From assembly GCF_003334255.1 (NCBI RefSeq), contig NZ_QOWU01000014.1: a stretch of 64,000 nt of DNA; one strand, given 5' to 3'. The notes beneath the pieces were generated by a model that was given only the letters and a program-made list of their open reading frames with translations, was not told the origin of the DNA and ran no database searches. Source of the stretch: Escherichia coli (lineage in GTDB: Bacteria; Pseudomonadota; Gammaproteobacteria; Enterobacterales; Enterobacteriaceae). Both the position numbers and the translations under genes were made by a program. How positions within the stretch are numbered: the stretch's first letter is position 1; every line of letters begins with the position of its first letter. Positions 5,085 to 40,525 of this stretch are shown piece by piece.

Positions 5085-5252
5085 CCGATGAAGCGGCGGT
5101 AGAAGTGCCGCCGCAACAAAGACAAATGCCTGATACGCTTCGCTTATCAAGCCTGCGTATTGATTCATAATTTATTGAATTTGTAGGGTGATGAATCGCA
5201 TCCGGCAGGAAGGTAGGGTAACCTGAAATGGCGGTCTTCTCACTGCCGCCTT

Positions 5253-18617: not shown

Positions 18618-19815
18618 AACGGGTCACGATCTCGTCGAGTAATAATTGGCCAAGGAGCTCTTTGCGCTCAAGCGGTAAGACTTTATCTCCGTCCTGCCAG
18701 AAAAGGTGTAATGCGTTGTTGTCGCTGTTAAATCCTTGAGTTGGCTGGGAAACATCGTTCGCGCAGATCAGATCAAGGTTTTTACGGATACGTTTTTGCC
18801 GGGCGTATTCTTCCACATTATTTGTTTCGGCGGCAAATCCAACGACGTAGGGTCGATGGTCTTTTAGTGCGGCAACGCCTGCGACGATATCGGGGTTTTT
18901 AACCATTTTTATTGTTAATTCATCACCCTGCGTGGCCTGCTTTTTGATTTTTTCTGGGGCCACGGTAGCTGCGCGATAATCCGCCACGGCGGCGCAACCG
19001 ATAAAAATATTTTGCTGCTGTACAGAAGCATTCACGGCGGCTTCCATTTCCAGCGCGGTCATCACATCAACACGTTTAACAAACGGTGGCGTCGGTAGTG
19101 AAACCGGACCTGATACCAGCGTGACGTTCGCGCCACGACGGGCAGCGGCGGCGGCGATAGCAAAACCCATCTTGCCGGAGCTGTGATTAGAGATATAACG
19201 CACCGGATCGAGCGGTTCACGCGTCGGGCCGGCGGTAATCATAATGTTCAGATGTTTCAGGTCGTTGACGGGCGAAAAATGCGCTACCGCCATATCCACA
19301 ATGGTTAATGGATCGAGCATTCGCCCTGGGCCGATATCACCACAAGCCTGACTGCCACTGTCTGGCCCCCAGATCAGCAAACCACGGGAAGCAAGCACCT
19401 CTAAATTATGCTGCGTGGCAGCGGCACGGTACATCTGCTGGTTCATGGCGGGGAGCACGGCTACAGGCGCAGGTGTAGCCAGACAAATCGTCGATACCAG
19501 GTCATTCGCCATTCCGGCAGCAACACGGGCAATCAAATCTGCCGTGGCAGGGGCGAGAATCACTAAATCAGCCCATTTACCCAGCTCAATATGGCCCATA
19601 GCGGCTTCGGCTGCCGGGTCCAGCAGACTGTCGGAAACGGGATAACCAGAAACCGCCTGCAAGCTAAGTGGGGTGATAAAGGCTTTTGCCGCTTCGGTCA
19701 TGGCTACGCGGACGTCGGCCCCGCGATCGCGCAAACGACGCACCAGTTCAGGGGTTTTATAGGCAGCAATACCGCCGCTAACGCCGAGAACGATTTTTTT
19801 ACCGGCCAGGCTCAT
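18595..19815 (-). CDS. coaBC: bifunctional phosphopantothenoylcysteine decarboxylase / synthetase
   Basis: 406 aa from internal ATG ([20 protein letters not shown]); overlaps dut start. Confidence 0.92.
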
Positions 19816-22241: not shown

Positions 22242-24006
<1,765 letters not shown>

Positions 24007-24357
24007 AGTAAATAGCTGACTTATGGATGTGCTGGGGATTCTATGTATTTAGCTGTGGCTTTACCATTACTTTTCCCGTTTTTGACTTAAATAGCAATTT
24101 ACCCGCCAATTCTTGCTGAACATCTATACTTTTTTTGTATTTTTATGCGATTCATTGATTTCTGCTGTACGTGCAGGAAGGAATCGCAGAGCAACAGTGA
24201 AAGAATATGGTTGCTAATGATTTTATTTGATTGATTTCTTTATTGAAAATCAACAATGTGCTTAAAAATCATTCGGGTCGGATTGCCGCGAAAGAAGTGA
24301 TACACTAGCGCGTCAATATCAGTGCGGTATCAGTATTCAGGTAGCTGTTGAGCCTGG

Positions 24358-24369
24358 GGCGGTAGCGTG
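24358..24369 (+). promoter_or_regulatory. ops element GGCGGTAGCGTG (RfaH recruitment site) in the waaQ leader
   Basis: exact 12-mer about 50 bp upstream of the waaQ start. Confidence 0.8.
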
Positions 24370-24418
24370 CTTTTTCTGCTTCACCTTAATCGGATAATCT
24401 CAACAAAAAGAGTTACTT

Positions 24419-25477
24419 GTGGATAAGCCATTTCGAAGAATTTTGCTCATTAAGATGCGTTTTCATGGGGATATGTTATTAACTACTCCCGTCATTAGTT
24501 CGCTGAAAAAAAATTACCCTGACGCAAAAATCGATGTGCTGCTTTATCAGGACACCATCCCGATCCTGTCTGAAAATCCAGAGATTAACGCGCTCTACGG
24601 CATAAAAAATAAAAAAGCAAAAGCCTCAGAAAAAATTGCCAACTTTTTTCATCTCATCAAGGTATTACGTGCCAATAAGTATGACCTTATCGTCAATCTT
24701 ACCGATCAATGGATGGTTGCTATACTGGTTCGCTTATTAAATGCTCGTGTGAAAATTTCCCAGGATTATCATCATCGGCAGTCTGCTTTTTGGCGTAAAA
24801 GTTTCACCCATTTGGTGCCGTTGCAGGGTGGAAATGTGGTGGAAAGTAACTTATCCGTGCTGACACCATTGGGACTTGATTCGTTGGTGAAGCAGACAAC
24901 CATGAGTTACCCGCCTGCAAGCTGGAAACGTATGCGTCGCGAACTTGATCACGCTGGTGTTGGACAAAATTATGTGGTTATCCAACCTACGGCGCGGCAA
25001 ATCTTCAAATGCTGGGACAACGCCAAGTTTTCCGCTGTGATTGATGCCTTACATGCTAGTGGTTATGAAGTCGTTCTGACGTCCGGCCCGGATAAAGACG
25101 ATCTGGCCTGCGTCAATGAAATTGCGCAGGGATGCCAGACGCCACCAGTAACGGCGCTGGCTGGAAAGGTGACCTTCCCGGAACTTGGTGCGTTAATCGA
25201 TCATGCGCAGCTGTTTATTGGCGTTGATTCCGCACCGGCGCATATTGCCGCTGCAGTTAATACGCCGCTGATATCGCTGTTTGGTGCGACAGACCATATT
25301 TTCTGGCGTCCCTGGTCAAATAACATGATTCAATTCTGGGCGGGAGATTACCGGGAAATGCCAACGCGCGATCAGCGTGACCGAAATGAGATGTATCTTT
25401 CGGTTATTCCGGCGGCAGATGTCATTGCTGCTGTCGATAAATTACTGCCCTTCTCCACGACAGGTACGTCGTTATGA
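24419..25477 (+). CDS. waaQ: LPS heptosyltransferase III (GT9)
   Basis: GT9 N-terminal motif RILLIKMRFHGDMLLTTPVISSL; GTG start as in ORF track, ATG at 24455 is the alternative. Confidence 0.85.
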   Translation: MDKPFRRILLIKMRFHGDMLLTTPVISSLKKNYPDAKIDVLLYQDTIPILSENPEINALYGIKNKKAKASEKIANFFHLIKVLRANKYDLIVNLTDQWMVAILVRLLNARVKISQDYHHRQSAFWRKSFTHLVPLQGGNVVESNLSVLTPLGLDSLVKQTTMSYPPASWKRMRRELDHAGVGQNYVVIQPTARQIFKCWDNAKFSAVIDALHASGYEVVLTSGPDKDDLACVNEIAQGCQTPPVTALAGKVTFPELGALIDHAQLFIGVDSAPAHIAAAVNTPLISLFGATDHIFWRPWSNNMIQFWAGDYREMPTRDQRDRNEMYLSVIPAADVIAAVDKLLPFSTTGTSL

Positions 25478-26598
25478 TCGTTGCTTTTTGTTTATATAAA
25501 TATTTTCCCTTTGGCGGTTTGCAGCGCGATTTTATGCGTATTGCTCAGACAGTCGCCGCCCGAGGTCATCATGTTCGGGTTTATACCCAGTCGTGGGAAG
25601 GCGAATGCCCTGATGTATTTGAACTGATCAAAGTGCCGGTTAAATCGCATACCAATCACGGGCGCAATGCGGAGTATTTTACCTGGGTGCAAAAACATTT
25701 ACGCGAACATCCCGTCGATAAAGTCGTTGGATTCAACAAAATGCCGGGGCTGGACGTTTATTATGCCGCTGATGTTTGTTATGCCGAGAAAGTAGCGCAG
25801 GAGAAAGGCTTTTTCTATCGCCTGACGTCACGTTATCGCCATTATGCCGCCTTTGAGCGGGCAACCTTCGAACAGGGCAAGCCGACACAGCTGCTGATGC
25901 TGACAGATAAGCAAATCGCCGATTTCCAGAAACATTATCAGACTGAAGCGGAGCGTTTTCATATTCTGCCACCGGGGATTTATCCTGATCGTAAATATAG
26001 CCAGCAGCCAGCCAATAGCCGTGAAATCTTCCGTAAGAAGAATGGAATAACCGAACAACAATATTTATTGTTGCAGGTCGGTTCAGACTTCACGCGTAAA
26101 GGTGTCGATCGTTCCATTGAAGCACTTGCTTCTTTACCGGATTCGCTGCGCCACAACACATTGCTATATGTTGTTGGGCAGGATAAACCGCGAAAATTTG
26201 AGGCGCTGGCAGAAAAACGCGGCGTGCGCAGTAATGTTCACTTCTTCTCGGGGCGCAATGATGTCTCGGAATTAATGGCGGCGGCGGATTTATTACTGCA
26301 TCCTGCCTACCAGGAAGCGGCGGGAATTGTGCTGCTGGAAGCGATTACTGCAGGATTACCGGTACTAACAACAGCCGTTTGTGGCTATGCGCCTTATATT
26401 GTCGAGGCCAATTGCGGCGAGGCTATTGCTGAGCCATTCCGCCAGGAAACATTGAATGAGATTTTACGCAAAGCGTTAACGCAATCTTCATTGCGCCAGG
26501 CCTGGGCGGAAAATGCGCGACATTATGCTGATACACAAGATTTATACAGTCTGCCAGAGAAAGCGGCGGATATCATAACGGGTGGTCTGGATGGTTGA
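25474..26598 (+). CDS. waaG: LPS glucosyltransferase I (GT4)
   Basis: 374-aa ORF overlapping waaQ stop by 4 bp. Confidence 0.9.
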
Positions 26599-27388
26599 AC
26601 TTAAAGAGCCGTTTGCCACGTTATGGCGCGGTAAAGATCCTTTTGAGGAAGTTAAAACCTTGCAGGGTGAGATATTTCGTGAACTGGAAACTCGCCGTAC
26701 TCTGCGCTTTGAAATGGCGGGAAAAAGCTATTTTCTCAAATGGCATCGCGGCACGACCCTGAAAGAGATAATCAAAAATTTACTCTCATTGCGGATGCCA
26801 GTATTAGGCGCAGACCGCGAATGGAATGCGATTCATCGACTGCGGGATGTCGGCGTTGATACTATGTATGGGGTGGCATTCGGCGAAAAAGGCATGAATC
26901 CGCTGACCAGAACCTCGTTTATTATTACCGAAGATCTGACACCAACCATAAGTCTGGAAGATTACTGTGCTGACTGGGCGACCAACCCACCAGATGTTCG
27001 CGTAAAGCGTATGCTTATTAAGCGTGTCGCGACGATGGTGCGCGATATGCATGCTGCGGGCATTAATCACCGTGACTGTTATATCTGTCATTTCCTGCTG
27101 CACTTGCCTTTTTCCGGTAAGGAAGAGGAGTTAAAAATTTCGGTAATTGACCTGCACCGGGCGCAGCTTCGCACGCGCGTTCCACGTCGTTGGCGCGATA
27201 AAGATCTTATTGGACTTTATTTTTCTTCGATGAATATTGGCCTGACTCAGCGGGATATCTGGCGGTTTATGAAGGTGTATTTTGCCGCTCCGCTTAAAGA
27301 CATTCTCAAGCAGGAACAAGGACTGCTGTTGCAAGCAGAAGCAAAAGCCACAAAAATCAGGGAAAGAACGATTCGAAAATCGTTGTAA
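26591..27388 (+). CDS. waaP: LPS core heptose(I) kinase
   Basis: 265 aa from internal ATG ([21 protein letters not shown]). Confidence 0.9.
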
Positions 27389-27430
27389 CCCGTAACTTAT
27401 TTTTGCCAAAATTTTGGATACAGAATAAAT

Positions 27431-28438
27431 ATGTCTCAACTCAATGATAGTGACATCATCCTTTTTGAGTATAATTTTCATTATCAAAATATAAGATCTA
27501 AAAATACTCTTGATATAGCATTTGGTATTGACAGAAATTTTCTTTTTGGATGTGGTGTAGCCATCGCATCTATTCTATTAAACAATAGAGAAATCTCTTG
27601 TGAATTTCATGTTTTCACAGATTATATCAGTGATAAAGACAAATTATATTTTTCTGATTTAGCAAAACAATATAATTCAAGAATTAATATTTATGTTATC
27701 AATTGTGATAAGCTGAAGTCATTACCAAGCACGAAAAACTGGACTTACGCAACATATTTTCGATTTATAATTGCAGATTATTTCTATCATAAACATGAAA
27801 AAATACTATATCTTGATGCAGATATTGCTTGCAAGGGTAGTATTAAAGAACTCTTAGATTATCAATTTTCTACTAATGAAATTGCCGCAGTTGTAGCTGA
27901 AAGAGATGTTGAATGGTGGCAAAATCGAGCCTCGGTATTAACTACACCACAGTTAGCTTCTGGATATTTCAATGCTGGTTTTTTACTGATAAATATTGAT
28001 GAGTGGAATCTAAATAACATTTCGTCAAAAGCTATTGAAATGTTGCGTGACCCAGATTGGGTAAGTAAAATCACCCACCTTGATCAAGATGTACTGAATG
28101 TATTATTGAATGGTAAAGTGAAGTTTATTTCGGAGAAATATAATACCCGATATAGTATTAACTATGAATTAAAAGACAAAGTTGATAATCCAGTCAATGA
28201 TGACACCGTGTTTATACACTATGTGGGACCTACAAAACCCTGGCATGAGTGGGCTGACTATCCGGTGTCACGTAGTTTTTTGATCGCCAAAGCAGCTTCT
28301 CCGTGGAGTAAAGAAGATTTACTTAAACCTGTAAATAGCAATCAGTATCGGTATTGTGCAAAACATAAATTTAAACAAAAGCATTATATGGCAGGCATTT
28401 TTAATTATTTAAAGTATTATAAAGAAAAATGCTTCTAA
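27431..28438 (+). CDS. waaI: GT8-family outer-core glycosyltransferase (WaaI-like)
   Basis: 335 aa with GT8 DxD motif YLDADIACKGSI; position after waaP fits the R3 gene order; AT-rich. Confidence 0.7.
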   Translation: MSQLNDSDIILFEYNFHYQNIRSKNTLDIAFGIDRNFLFGCGVAIASILLNNREISCEFHVFTDYISDKDKLYFSDLAKQYNSRINIYVINCDKLKSLPSTKNWTYATYFRFIIADYFYHKHEKILYLDADIACKGSIKELLDYQFSTNEIAAVVAERDVEWWQNRASVLTTPQLASGYFNAGFLLINIDEWNLNNISSKAIEMLRDPDWVSKITHLDQDVLNVLLNGKVKFISEKYNTRYSINYELKDKVDNPVNDDTVFIHYVGPTKPWHEWADYPVSRSFLIAKAASPWSKEDLLKPVNSNQYRYCAKHKFKQKHYMAGIFNYLKYYKEKCF

Positions 28439-28463
28439 AGATTTAAGGTTAAAATAATTCATT

Positions 28464-29171
28464 ATGATATATAATAAAACGATAAATGGGTTGAAAGTTT
28501 TCATAAAAGATAATGATCCCTTTTATGAGCAAGTTCTAAATGACTTTTTAACTTGCAGGGTTAAAACATTAAAAGTTTTTCGTTCTATTGATGATACTAA
28601 AGTCATTCTTATTGACACTGCTCGTGGACCTCTTGTACTTAAAGTTTATGCGCCAAAGCATAAAATGACCGAACGTTTCTTAAAATCTTGCATAAAAAAA
28701 GATTATTATGAAAATTTAATTTATCAAACCGATCGGGTACGTGGTGAAGGCATCCAATCAATTAATGACTATTTTTTGCTAGCTGAACGTAAAACATTAA
28801 ATTTCGCTCATTATTATATTATGCTCATTGAGTATATTGAAGGTGTCGGGTTAAATGAGTATTTGGAAATTTCTGAAGATCTGAAGGATCAATTATCAGA
28901 ATCGATAAAAGAGTTGCATCAGCATGGAATGGTGTCTGGCGATCCTCATAAAGGAAATTTTATAGTATCCGAAAAAGGTTTAAGACTAATTGACCTTTCA
29001 GGTAAAAAAACAACCGCTGTTTTAAAAGCAAAAGATCGCATTGATCTTGAACGGCACTATAATATAAAAAATGAATTGAAAGACTTTGGCTATACATATC
29101 TTATATTCAAAAAGAAAATTAAAAAAGTAATCAGGGATGTAAAAGTCAAACTAGGATTGAAGAGCAAATAA
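28464..29171 (+). CDS. waaY: LPS core heptose(II) kinase
   Basis: 235-aa kinase-like ORF (LVLKVY...HGMVSGDPHKGNF) between the two GT8 genes. Confidence 0.75.
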   Translation: MIYNKTINGLKVFIKDNDPFYEQVLNDFLTCRVKTLKVFRSIDDTKVILIDTARGPLVLKVYAPKHKMTERFLKSCIKKDYYENLIYQTDRVRGEGIQSINDYFLLAERKTLNFAHYYIMLIEYIEGVGLNEYLEISEDLKDQLSESIKELHQHGMVSGDPHKGNFIVSEKGLRLIDLSGKKTTAVLKAKDRIDLERHYNIKNELKDFGYTYLIFKKKIKKVIRDVKVKLGLKSK

Positions 29172-29195
29172 TGATTATGATGAAGGGTAATTAAA

Positions 29196-30209
29196 TTGGA
29201 TTTTAAACATCTTACTCAATTTAAAGATATAATTGAACTGGACAAGCGCCCCGTTAAACTTGATGAACGGGAAACGTTTAATGTCTCATGGGGTATTGAT
29301 GAGAACTACCAGGTTGGGGCTGCGATTTCAATTGCTTCAATTCTTGAAAATAATAAACAAAACAAATTTACCTTTCACATAATCGCTGATTACTTAGACA
29401 AAGAGTATATTGAATTATTATCACAATTAGCAACGAAGTATCAAACAGTAATTAAATTATATCATATTGATTCTGAGCCATTGAAGGCGCTACCTCAATC
29501 AAATATCTGGCCAGTATCTATTTATTATCGTTTGCTTTCATTTGATTATTTTTCTGCGCGATTGGATTCATTATTATATCTTGATGCTGATATCGTCTGT
29601 AAGGGTTCATTGAACGAGTTAATAGCATTAGAGTTTAAAGATGAATATGGGGCAGTGGTAATTGATGTAGATGCTATGCAAAGTAAAAGCGCTGAGCGTT
29701 TGTGTAATGAGGATTTTAACGGTAGCTATTTTAACTCTGGTGTAATGTATATTAATTTACGGGAATGGTTAAAACAAAGACTAACGGAAAAATTCTTTGA
29801 TCTATTATCAGATGAGTCAATTATAAAAAAATTAAAGTACCCGGATCAAGATATTTTAAACTTAATGTTTCTACATCATGCTAAAATATTACCGAGAAAA
29901 TATAATTGTATTTATACTATAAAGTCAGAATTTGAAGAAAAAAATAGTGAATATTACACCCGGTTTATTAATGATGACACTGTCTTCATACATTATACTG
30001 GTATAACTAAGCCATGGCATGATTGGGCGAACTACGCCTCTGCAGATTATTTTCGTAATATTTATAATATATCACCATGGAGAAATATACCTTATAAAAA
30101 AGCTGTTAAAAAACATGAGTACAAAGAAAAATATAAACACTTGCTTTACCAGAAAAAATTTCTCGATGGTGTTTTTACAGCAATTAAATATAATGTTATG
30201 AAAGGTTAA
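29196..30209 (+). CDS. waaJ: GT8-family outer-core glycosyltransferase (WaaJ-like)
   Basis: 337 aa with GT8 motif YLDADIVCKGSL; paralogous to the 27431-28438 ORF. Confidence 0.7.
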   Translation: MDFKHLTQFKDIIELDKRPVKLDERETFNVSWGIDENYQVGAAISIASILENNKQNKFTFHIIADYLDKEYIELLSQLATKYQTVIKLYHIDSEPLKALPQSNIWPVSIYYRLLSFDYFSARLDSLLYLDADIVCKGSLNELIALEFKDEYGAVVIDVDAMQSKSAERLCNEDFNGSYFNSGVMYINLREWLKQRLTEKFFDLLSDESIIKKLKYPDQDILNLMFLHHAKILPRKYNCIYTIKSEFEEKNSEYYTRFINDDTVFIHYTGITKPWHDWANYASADYFRNIYNISPWRNIPYKKAVKKHEYKEKYKHLLYQKKFLDGVFTAIKYNVMKG

Positions 30210-30217
30210 TATACGAG

Positions 30218-31360
30218 ATGGTTGATAAAATAATATTTACGGTTACTCCTATTTTTTCAATTCCTCCTCGCGGAGCGGCTGCTGTTGAAACGTGGATGTA
30301 TCAGGTTGCTCAGCGTACCAATTTTCCAAATCGTATTGTTTGTATCAAAAATCCAGGATACTCAAATTACACCTTTGTTAATGATAATTGTAGTATTCAT
30401 AGGGTTGGATTCAGTCGCATATATAAGCGGTTATTTCAAAAATGGACAAGACTTGATCCTCTTCCATATTCACAGAGAATATTGAATATTGCACATGATT
30501 TTCCTATAACGAAAGAAAGTGTTATTGTAGTTCATAATAGCATGAAGCTATACACTCAAATTCGTAAGCGAGCTCCTCAGGCAAGAGTGGTTATACATAT
30601 GCATAATGCATTTGAACCAAAATTGCTTGAGCAAAATGTTAAAATGATAGTGCCTAGTTTATACTTGAAAAAGTATTACCAATCTTATTTAGCAAATGCA
30701 GATATTGAGATTGTACCAAATGGAATTGATTTAGAAACCTATCAATCTAATTTTCAGCCGATCACTAGAAGCGAACTTAATATCTCCCCTGAAGAGAAAA
30801 TTATTTTTTATGCTGGGCGTATCGTCCCTGACAAAGGCATATTGCTGTTGATGCAATCATTCGAAAAATTGGCCGCTGCTCACAAAAATTTAAAATTAGT
30901 TGTGATTGGTGATTATACAGAAATGAGTAAAAGTGACAAAGGTGCATATCAACGCAATGTCAGGGAAATTGCAAAACGTTTGAAGGATCGTTGCATTATG
31001 TTAGGAAGCATACCGCCTGAAAAGATGCATTGTTATTACCCACTGGCAGATTTAGTCGTCATTCCTTCCCAGTTCCAGGAACCATTTTGCATGGTGGCAA
31101 TTGAAGCTATGGGTGCTGGTAAGCCTGTTTTAGTGAGTACGCGTGGGGGGATGACGGAATTTGTCAAAGAAAATACTACGGGATTCCATTTAAAAGAACC
31201 TATGACTGCAGACTCCATAAGCAGCGATATTTTAAAAACGTTAGCGAATCCTGAATTAACAGCAGTTGCAAAGCAAGGTCAGGACTTTGTGTTTGATCAC
31301 TACAGTTGGGATGGCGTAACTCAAAGATTCGAAGAGGTTATTCATAATTGGTTTGAATAA
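30218..31360 (+). CDS. waaD: GT4-family glycosyltransferase (WaaD-like, R3 outer core)
   Basis: 380 aa with retaining-GT4 C-terminal motif (FQEPFCMVAIEAMGAGKPV); last gene of the waaQ operon before convergent waaL. Confidence 0.65.
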   Translation: MVDKIIFTVTPIFSIPPRGAAAVETWMYQVAQRTNFPNRIVCIKNPGYSNYTFVNDNCSIHRVGFSRIYKRLFQKWTRLDPLPYSQRILNIAHDFPITKESVIVVHNSMKLYTQIRKRAPQARVVIHMHNAFEPKLLEQNVKMIVPSLYLKKYYQSYLANADIEIVPNGIDLETYQSNFQPITRSELNISPEEKIIFYAGRIVPDKGILLLMQSFEKLAAAHKNLKLVVIGDYTEMSKSDKGAYQRNVREIAKRLKDRCIMLGSIPPEKMHCYYPLADLVVIPSQFQEPFCMVAIEAMGAGKPVLVSTRGGMTEFVKENTTGFHLKEPMTADSISSDILKTLANPELTAVAKQGQDFVFDHYSWDGVTQRFEEVIHNWFE

Positions 31361-31362
31361 AT

Positions 31363-31395
31363 AAAAAGGCCGCATTATGCAGCCTTTTTTATTTT
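31363..31395. terminator. bidirectional rho-independent terminator between waaD and waaL
   Basis: AAAAAGGC...GCCTTTTTT perfect stem with A-run on one side and T-run on the other. Confidence 0.8.
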
Positions 31396-39490: not shown

Positions 39491-40525
39491 ATGATGAACA
39501 GCACCAATAAACTTAGTGTTATTATTCCGTTATATAATGCGGGCGATGATTTCCGCACTTGTATGGAATCTTTAATTACGCAAACCTGGACTGCTCTGGA
39601 AATCATTATTATTAACGATGGTTCAACGGATAATTCTGTTGAAATAGCAAAGCATTACGCAGAAAACTATCCGCACGTTCGTTTGTTGCATCAGGCGAAT
39701 GCTGGCGCATCGGTGGCGCGTAATCGTGGGATCGAGGTGGCAACGGGCAAATATGTCGCTTTTGTCGATGCTGACGATGAAGTCTATCCCACCATGTACG
39801 AAACGCTGATGACCATGGCGTTAGAGGACGACCTCGATGTAGCGCAGTGCAACGCTGACTGGTGTTTTCGTGAAACGGGAGAAACCTGGCAATCTATCCC
39901 CAGCGATCGCCTTCGCTCAACCGGTGTATTAACCGGCCCGGACTGGCTGCGGATGGGGCTTTCTTCGCGCCGTTGGACTCACGTTGTCTGGATGGGGGTT
40001 TATCGCCGCGATGTTATTGTTAAAAATAACATTAAATTTATTGCCGGATTACATCATCAGGATATTGTCTGGACAACAGAATTCATGTTTAATGCGCTGC
40101 GTGCGCGATATACCGAGCAATCATTATATAAATATTATCTGCATAATACGTCAGTGAGTCGGTTGCATAGACAAGGGAATAAAAACCTTAATTATCAACG
40201 TCACTATATTAAGATTACCCGCCTGCTGGAGAAATTAAATCGAAATTATGCCGACAAAATTACGATTTATCCGGAATTTCATCAGCAAATAACTTACGAA
40301 GCATTGCGTGTTTGCCATGCGGTGCGCAAAGAGCCGGATATTCTTACCCGCCAACGGATGATTGCCGAGATATTTACTTCCGGTATGTATAAGCGCCTGA
40401 TTACCAATGTGCGCAGCGTGAAGGTGGGTTACCAGGCGTTACTGTGGTCTTTCCGCTTATGGCAATGGCGCGACAAAACGCGGTCGCACCATCGCATTAC
40501 GCGTAGCGCCTTTAATTTGCGCTAG
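39491..40525 (+). CDS. waaH: GT2-family glycosyltransferase WaaH (YibD)
   Basis: 344 aa with GT2 N-terminal motif LSVIIPLYNAGDDF and DAD motif. Confidence 0.85.
   Translation: MMNSTNKLSVIIPLYNAGDDFRTCMESLITQTWTALEIIIINDGSTDNSVEIAKHYAENYPHVRLLHQANAGASVARNRGIEVATGKYVAFVDADDEVYPTMYETLMTMALEDDLDVAQCNADWCFRETGETWQSIPSDRLRSTGVLTGPDWLRMGLSSRRWTHVVWMGVYRRDVIVKNNIKFIAGLHHQDIVWTTEFMFNALRARYTEQSLYKYYLHNTSVSRLHRQGNKNLNYQRHYIKITRLLEKLNRNYADKITIYPEFHQQITYEALRVCHAVRKEPDILTRQRMIAEIFTSGMYKRLITNVRSVKVGYQALLWSFRLWQWRDKTRSHHRITRSAFNLR

Follow-up and report, generated by a model that had tools for sequence, protein, structure and literature searches.

A canonical JUMPstart/ops leader upstream of the waaQ lipopolysaccharide-core operon in an Escherichia coli strain with an R3 core

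Introduction

The recruitment of RfaH to the ops element has been described at the level of individual bases. The wild-type ops12 oligonucleotide used in structural and functional work on the RfaH:ops complex is GGCGGTAGCGTG, RNA polymerase pauses at U11, and a hairpin closed by C3:G8 in the non-template strand presents G4-A7 with T6 flipped out, while changes to G4, G5, A7 or G8 abolish recruitment and the pause needs T11/G12 (PMC5995543). The ops elements of the hly, tra and kps loci, which we liken to the present one by their description in the RfaH literature, share the consensus GGCGGTAGnnTG and the pause-inducing TG at positions 11-12 (PMC5995543). The waaQ 5' untranslated region carries both ops and the JUMPstart sequence, and its operon requires RfaH (PMC6358824, PMC8745692, PMC5449661); when RfaH is missing, the waa operon of K-12 is shut down by H-NS and by Rho acting at many weak sites (PMC5449661). 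The NT44 scaffold GGGCGGTAGCGTGCTTTTTT of the structural work matches the waaQ leader even past ops (PMC5995543). In addition, a 73-nt small RNA of K-12, RirA, is reported to have its 5' end in common with the waaQ mRNA, to contain ops and JUMPstart, and to bind RfaH with RNA polymerase (PMC5736990, PMC8745692). A literature search returned no experimental study of RfaH dependence in an R3-type waa operon.

Here we examine the region between waaA and waaQ in a 64-kb stretch of the E. coli chromosome that runs from yicI to an RHS element (the whole stretch is referred to below as the window). We conclude with high confidence (a probability of roughly 94%) that this region represents the canonical JUMPstart/ops leader found before the waaQ (rfaQ) lipopolysaccharide-core operon of E. 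coli, in this case in an R3 strain, and no evidence contradicting this reading was found. The waaQ ops/JUMPstart is a textbook site for the loading of RfaH, occurs in nearly all E. coli genomes and is as such already known.

An exact ops element in the waaA-waaQ intergenic region

The initial annotation had placed an exact ops element about 50 bp before waaQ, between divergent waaA and waaQ genes, and each part of that description was borne out. NCBIfam models identify the two flanking genes, which diverge from an exact 412-bp non-coding gap (Table 1), and the 12-mer, identical to ops12 (PMC5995543), occurs once in the window, on the plus strand, which is the sense (non-template) strand of waaQ. 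It is separated by 49 nt from the GTG start of waaQ, and no open reading frame of at least 20 amino acids overlaps it on either strand. The 12-mer is non-coding and does not deviate from the consensus. All of the positions implicated in RfaH binding (C3, G4, G5, T6, A7 and G8) and in pausing (T11 and G12) are present. A conserved extended -10 element lies 52 nt upstream, from which the transcription start is placed by prediction. The rfaH gene itself, a core gene of E. coli, is absent from the window as judged from the annotation of a collinear strain.

Table 1. Features of the waaA-waaQ region and of the operon behind it, in window coordinates, with identity to K-12 where compared.
Feature	Coordinates	Strand	Basis or detail	Identity to K-12
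waaA (Kdo transferase)	22729-24006	-	NCBIfam NF004385, 905.7 bits	99.9% (nucleotide)
waaA-waaQ non-coding gap	24007-24418		412 bp between divergent genes	
waaA-proximal 89 nt			separate conserved block	89/89
Distal spacer	24096-24259		with indels	85/172 (~49%)
Promoter/leader island in otherwise diverged intergenic region	24260-24375	+	conserved	107/116
Predicted extended -10 of waaQ operon, TGaTACACT	24298-24306	+	cross-genus conservation	
JUMPstart, 39 nt, with ops as its 3' end	24331-24369	+	Rfam RF01707	39/39
JUMPstart stem-loop	24338-24356	+	Rfam consensus structure; arms 24338-24342 CAGGU and 24352-24356 GCCUG	
ops element GGCGGTAGCGTG (site of pausing and of RfaH recruitment; recognized on non-template DNA strand)	24358-24369	+	exact match	
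Leader from ops to start codon	24370-24418	+	read from sequence; U-tract 24371-24375, weak Shine-Dalgarno-like AAGAG 24408-24412, then GTG	
Operon downstream of ops, 6.9 kb	24419-31360	+	open reading frames, NCBIfam, RefSeq annotation of collinear strains	
waaQ/rfaQ	24419-25477	+	GTG start; NCBIfam NF007742, 709.2 bits	~70% (coding DNA)
waaG	25474-26598	+		80% (5' end)
waaP	26582-27388	+		
waaI/O	27431-28438	+		
waaY	28464-29171	+		
waaJ	29196-30209	+		
waaD-type transferase	30218-31360	+		
Terminator-like palindromic hairpin AAAAAGGCTGCA-TAA-TGCGGCCTTTTT between convergent waaD and waaL	31363-31389		terminator scan	

The ops element completes a full-length JUMPstart

The 12-mer forms the 3' end of a longer element. 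Rfam RF01707 matches this element over its full length (model positions 1-38 of 38) with 55.2 bits, above its gathering score of 35, and E=6.4e-10, and the element precedes a polysaccharide biosynthesis operon, waaQGP-IYJD. Comparison with the JUMPstart sequences of other operons had been proposed as a check on the initial annotation. In K-12 MG1655 the same model scores 60.0 bits upstream of rfbB and 57.3 bits upstream of wza; these two elements are identical to the window element at 33 of 39 and 30 of 39 positions, respectively, and both end in GGCGGTAGCGTG. The rfb (O-antigen) and wca (colanic acid) elements thus share with the window the 39-nt architecture and a position in the leader of a long polysaccharide operon, whereas the first gene follows at different distances: 49 nt in the window, roughly 76 nt at rfbB and roughly 179 nt at wza. 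In some hly, tra and kps operons ops occurs without a full JUMPstart. Two further Rfam hits in the wca/rfb region of K-12 were the algC RNA motif, ahead of cpsG, and, between wcaK and wzxC, a naRNA4/REP-type element.

When a single genome from each species was scanned with a sequence pattern for the element, 120 loci were obtained, all of them from Enterobacterales except for a few likely contaminant contigs. The element lies upstream of waaQ homologues at 24 loci, of rfbB at 27, of wza at 24 and of galF at one; at the other 44 the next gene was unmatched by the waaQ, waaA, rfbB, galF, wza and wzc probes or lay beyond the retrieved sequence. The spacing between ops and the start codon is specific to each class, with 47-49 nt at most waaQ loci, 73-84 nt at most rfbB loci and 176-180 nt at most enterobacterial wza loci. 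The exceptions to the taxonomic pattern are enterobacterial JUMPstarts in contigs labelled Arthrobacter, Erysipelotrichia, Wohlfahrtiimonas, Chryseobacterium and Tenericutes, one of which is a 4-kb contig at 2x coverage whose element does not differ from the rfb JUMPstart of K-12; contamination or misbinning of the public assemblies is the apparent cause.

A predicted promoter and a conserved leader

An alignment of 21 waaQ leaders from Escherichia, Citrobacter, Silvania, Pluralibacter, Kosakonia, Shimwellia, Cedecea and Pectobacterium revealed a conserved TGnTACACT upstream of the JUMPstart, in which T24298 is invariant and G24299 is kept in at least 90% of the sequences. The hexamer reads TACACT in most leaders, TACAAT in Kosakonia and TATAAT in Citrobacter youngae. 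On the strength of this alignment TGaTACACT is predicted to be an extended -10 element, which would place the transcription start at about 24312-24315 and give a leader of about 105 nt. A sigma-70 scan of the intergenic region found two sites against 1.0 expected; its plus-strand candidate at 24243-24272 is not conserved across genera and was set aside, with TGaTACACT preferred. Between ops and waaQ, the stretches CTTTTT(T)CTGCTTA and AAAAGAG-N6-GTG are conserved across genera, and the weakness of the AAGAG before waaQ agrees with the literature, in which RfaH-controlled operons are described as lacking a canonical ribosome-binding site.

Leader RNA structure and the possibility of a role for the RNA

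Within the JUMPstart, RNAalifold recovered the 5-bp stem of the Rfam consensus structure, and the stem shows compensatory change, with five double changes in the waaQ class. The second pair, the only JUMPstart pair left unconstrained in the search pattern, is A:U in the window, as is typical of waaQ leaders, and U:A in the rfb and wca elements. Pairing at this position is kept in 44 of 49 distinct Enterobacterales elements against 26.7 expected (U:A in 30, A:U in eight, G:U in four and G:C in two). Folding of the 39-mer and of the leader gave structures no more stable than those of shuffled sequences (z = +0.3 to -0.5). Such unremarkable folds fit a DNA-level signal and lend no support to a role for the RNA.

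A reading centred on RNA can nevertheless be formulated, in which the element would act mainly as a transcript: RirA would arise by attenuation at the U-tract, behind a long hairpin around JUMPstart and ops, and would serve mainly to titrate or modulate RfaH, with recruitment through ops DNA being secondary. The reported properties of RirA, namely its waaQ 5' end, its ops and JUMPstart sequences and its binding of RfaH (PMC5736990, PMC8745692), speak for this reading, as does the potential of positions 24321-24371 to form a hairpin of 18 pairs around JUMPstart and ops, with UUUUU directly behind it. Across 23 waaQ leaders, 92% of the cells of this hairpin are paired, compared with 29-51% when the 3' partners are slid, and several one-sided changes preserve pairing (U:G to C:G, G:U to A:U). 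Set against this, the long hairpin is no better than shuffles (z = -0.46), RNAalifold finds no more than the 5-bp stem of JUMPstart, changes on both sides are limited to two pairs in a structure that was derived from one aligned sequence, and the U-tract is missing in the leaders of Pectobacterium, Kosakonia and C. youngae. Moreover, recognition of ops on the non-template DNA is structurally established (PMC5995543). We regard the RNA-centred account as unlikely, and more as a complement to RfaH recruitment through ops DNA than as its rival.

The long hairpin pairs a conserved AGUGCG (24321-24326) with the 3' half of ops, immediately ahead of the U5 tract, and may mark the 3' end of RirA. A more elaborate and rather improbable proposal is that the hairpin is an intrinsic attenuator that would yield RirA unless RfaH is loaded at ops, a feedback switch between a decoy RNA and the full-length transcript of which the 47-49 nt spacing from ops to GTG could possibly be a part.

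A conserved island within a diverged intergenic region

The JUMPstart 39-mer is exact in 4908 records and carries one mismatch in 496 more, and one or the other form is found in 5403 of 5426 complete E. coli genomes. The 412-bp intergenic region as a whole is present in 5425 of these genomes and falls into two allele classes, one at least 99% identical to the window (4410 records) and one at 60-80% identity (935 records) that includes K-12. The megablast search with this region also returned one plasmid-borne copy and left one genome without a match.

The waaQ leader of K-12 resembles that of the window in having an identical 39-nt JUMPstart/ops, a GTG start, near-equal spacing and a divergent waaA. 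It differs in the distal spacer, which is a different allele, and in the U-tract, which is one T shorter in the window. The promoter/leader block is a conservation island within a segment that has been replaced or has diverged, as the identities on either side of it indicate (Table 1). The onset of divergence is abrupt, about 90 nt from waaA, with the promoter/JUMPstart island spared, and may be the edge of a core-type recombination block. In the poultry strain E. coli E2, the waaA-waaQ spacer is interrupted by ISVsa5 (IS4-like) at about the equivalent of window position 24180; roughly the proximal 240 nt, with the promoter island and JUMPstart, are intact despite the insertion.

This pattern of conservation bears directly on whether the 12-mer could have arisen by chance or be vestigial, and so play no part in regulation in this strain. 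The consensus is short: GGCGGTAGnnTG is found once in 64 kb against 0.07 expected per window, and seven of 100 shuffles of the window contain a match. The 8-mer core GGCGGTAG is itself fairly common, with eight copies against 1.55 expected from shuffles. Chance statistics for GGCGGTAGnnTG are thus a weak argument taken alone, and it is context and conservation that decide. T11 and G12 accompany only one of the eight GGCGGTAG copies, the one before waaQ, and six of the other seven are intragenic. The pre-waaQ 12-mer sits within a full-length JUMPstart match, which is conserved in 5403 genomes and in other genera even as waaQ and the flanks diverge, and because of this conservation the chance or vestigial reading is effectively refuted.

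The seven other GGCGGTAG copies, at window positions 5095, 13458, 17016, 19284, 34847, 50640 and 54893, were also considered as scattered ops-like sites and rejected as such. They lack T11/G12; three of the six intragenic copies are antisense and three, at 19284 (coaBC), 34847 (rfaD) and 50640 (lldP), lie on the sense strand, while the copy at 5095 makes up the stem of a hairpin, GGCGG...GCCGCC, in the gltS-recG gap. Eight copies are also not exceptional, as 2.8% of all 8-mers reach that number, and the surplus probably reflects codon or composition bias.

Regulation of the divergent waaA-coaD operon in place of waaQ, which the shared intergenic location of the element might suggest, is excluded by the orientation of ops, as the element is read on the non-template strand and is on the plus strand, directed away from waaA, whose start is 352 nt distant, and the fixed spacing of 47-49 nt to waaQ in other genera and the separate conserved block next to waaA likewise speak against it.

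The operon behind ops specifies an R3 core

The genes from waaQ to waaD form a compact operon, with gaps between genes of -17 to +42 nt. Behind waaQGP, the outer-core genes are of the R3 type (waaI-Y-J-D) and not of the K-12 type. The typing primers for R3 (PMC13293308) match exactly at 29280-29302 and 30281-30300 and give an in-silico product of 1021 bp across the waaJ-waaD junction, as expected, whereas none of the typing primers for R1, R2, R4 and K-12 match. The gene order is that of R3, waaQGPIYJD with a convergent waaL. The window is therefore from E. coli with an R3 core, in agreement with the core type originally assigned to this locus, and its outer-core block is shared with O157:H7 and occurs in 1364 of 5426 complete E. 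coli genomes. The outer-core genes had also been described as AT-rich, and they are: their GC content is 30-37%, compared with 47-48% in waaQGP, and their C content is 14.5%. This low C and low GC fit the picture of silencing by Rho and H-NS in the absence of RfaH.

The operon is followed by a hairpin with a perfect 12-bp stem and flanks of A5 and T5, which is likely to be the end of the RfaH-modified transcript, and is probably a bidirectional terminator common to the waaQ and gmhD-waaFCL operons.

Strain G6/7 is collinear with the window and differs by seven SNPs in 64 kb. One of these, at 40274, falls within waaH (39491-40525), which is intact in the window and has an internal stop in G6/7. 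Similarly, waaJ is intact in the window and annotated as frameshifted in O157:H7 PV15-279, a strain in which an ISEc8 insertion upstream shifts the register relative to the window.

A model for RfaH action at the R3 waaQ leader

For the identical sequence in K-12, published work has shown the polymerase pause, the recruitment of RfaH and the dependence of downstream expression on rfaH. By analogy with K-12, RfaH would be expected to bind at this site, and the dependence of the operon on RfaH and the persistence of RfaH across the R3-specific outer-core genes can be extrapolated from the same strain. RNA polymerase would start at the predicted promoter about 45 nt upstream of ops, transcribe the JUMPstart and pause at ops U11. 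The non-template GGCGGTAG would then form the small C3:G8 hairpin, flipping out T6, and autoinhibited RfaH would bind this hairpin and open. Its N-terminal domain would lock onto RNA polymerase and exclude NusG, while the refolded C-terminal domain would recruit S10 and hence the ribosome, offsetting the weak Shine-Dalgarno sequence and the GTG start of waaQ. The modified complex would be expected to resist pausing, Rho/NusG and H-NS-aided silencing along the 6.9-kb operon, the AT-rich and C-poor outer-core genes included, as far as the terminator behind waaD.

Significance

The ops/JUMPstart result makes no open question newly testable, and its practical value is one of annotation, as the region is without an annotated feature in the E. 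coli RefSeq records examined. For the biology of the organism, it confirms that the RfaH entry site of K-12 is retained in the R3-core operon, the type characteristic of O157:H7 and other EHEC, despite surroundings that have been replaced or have diverged. Core-lipopolysaccharide expression in these pathogens is therefore still likely to have rfaH and ops as its master control.
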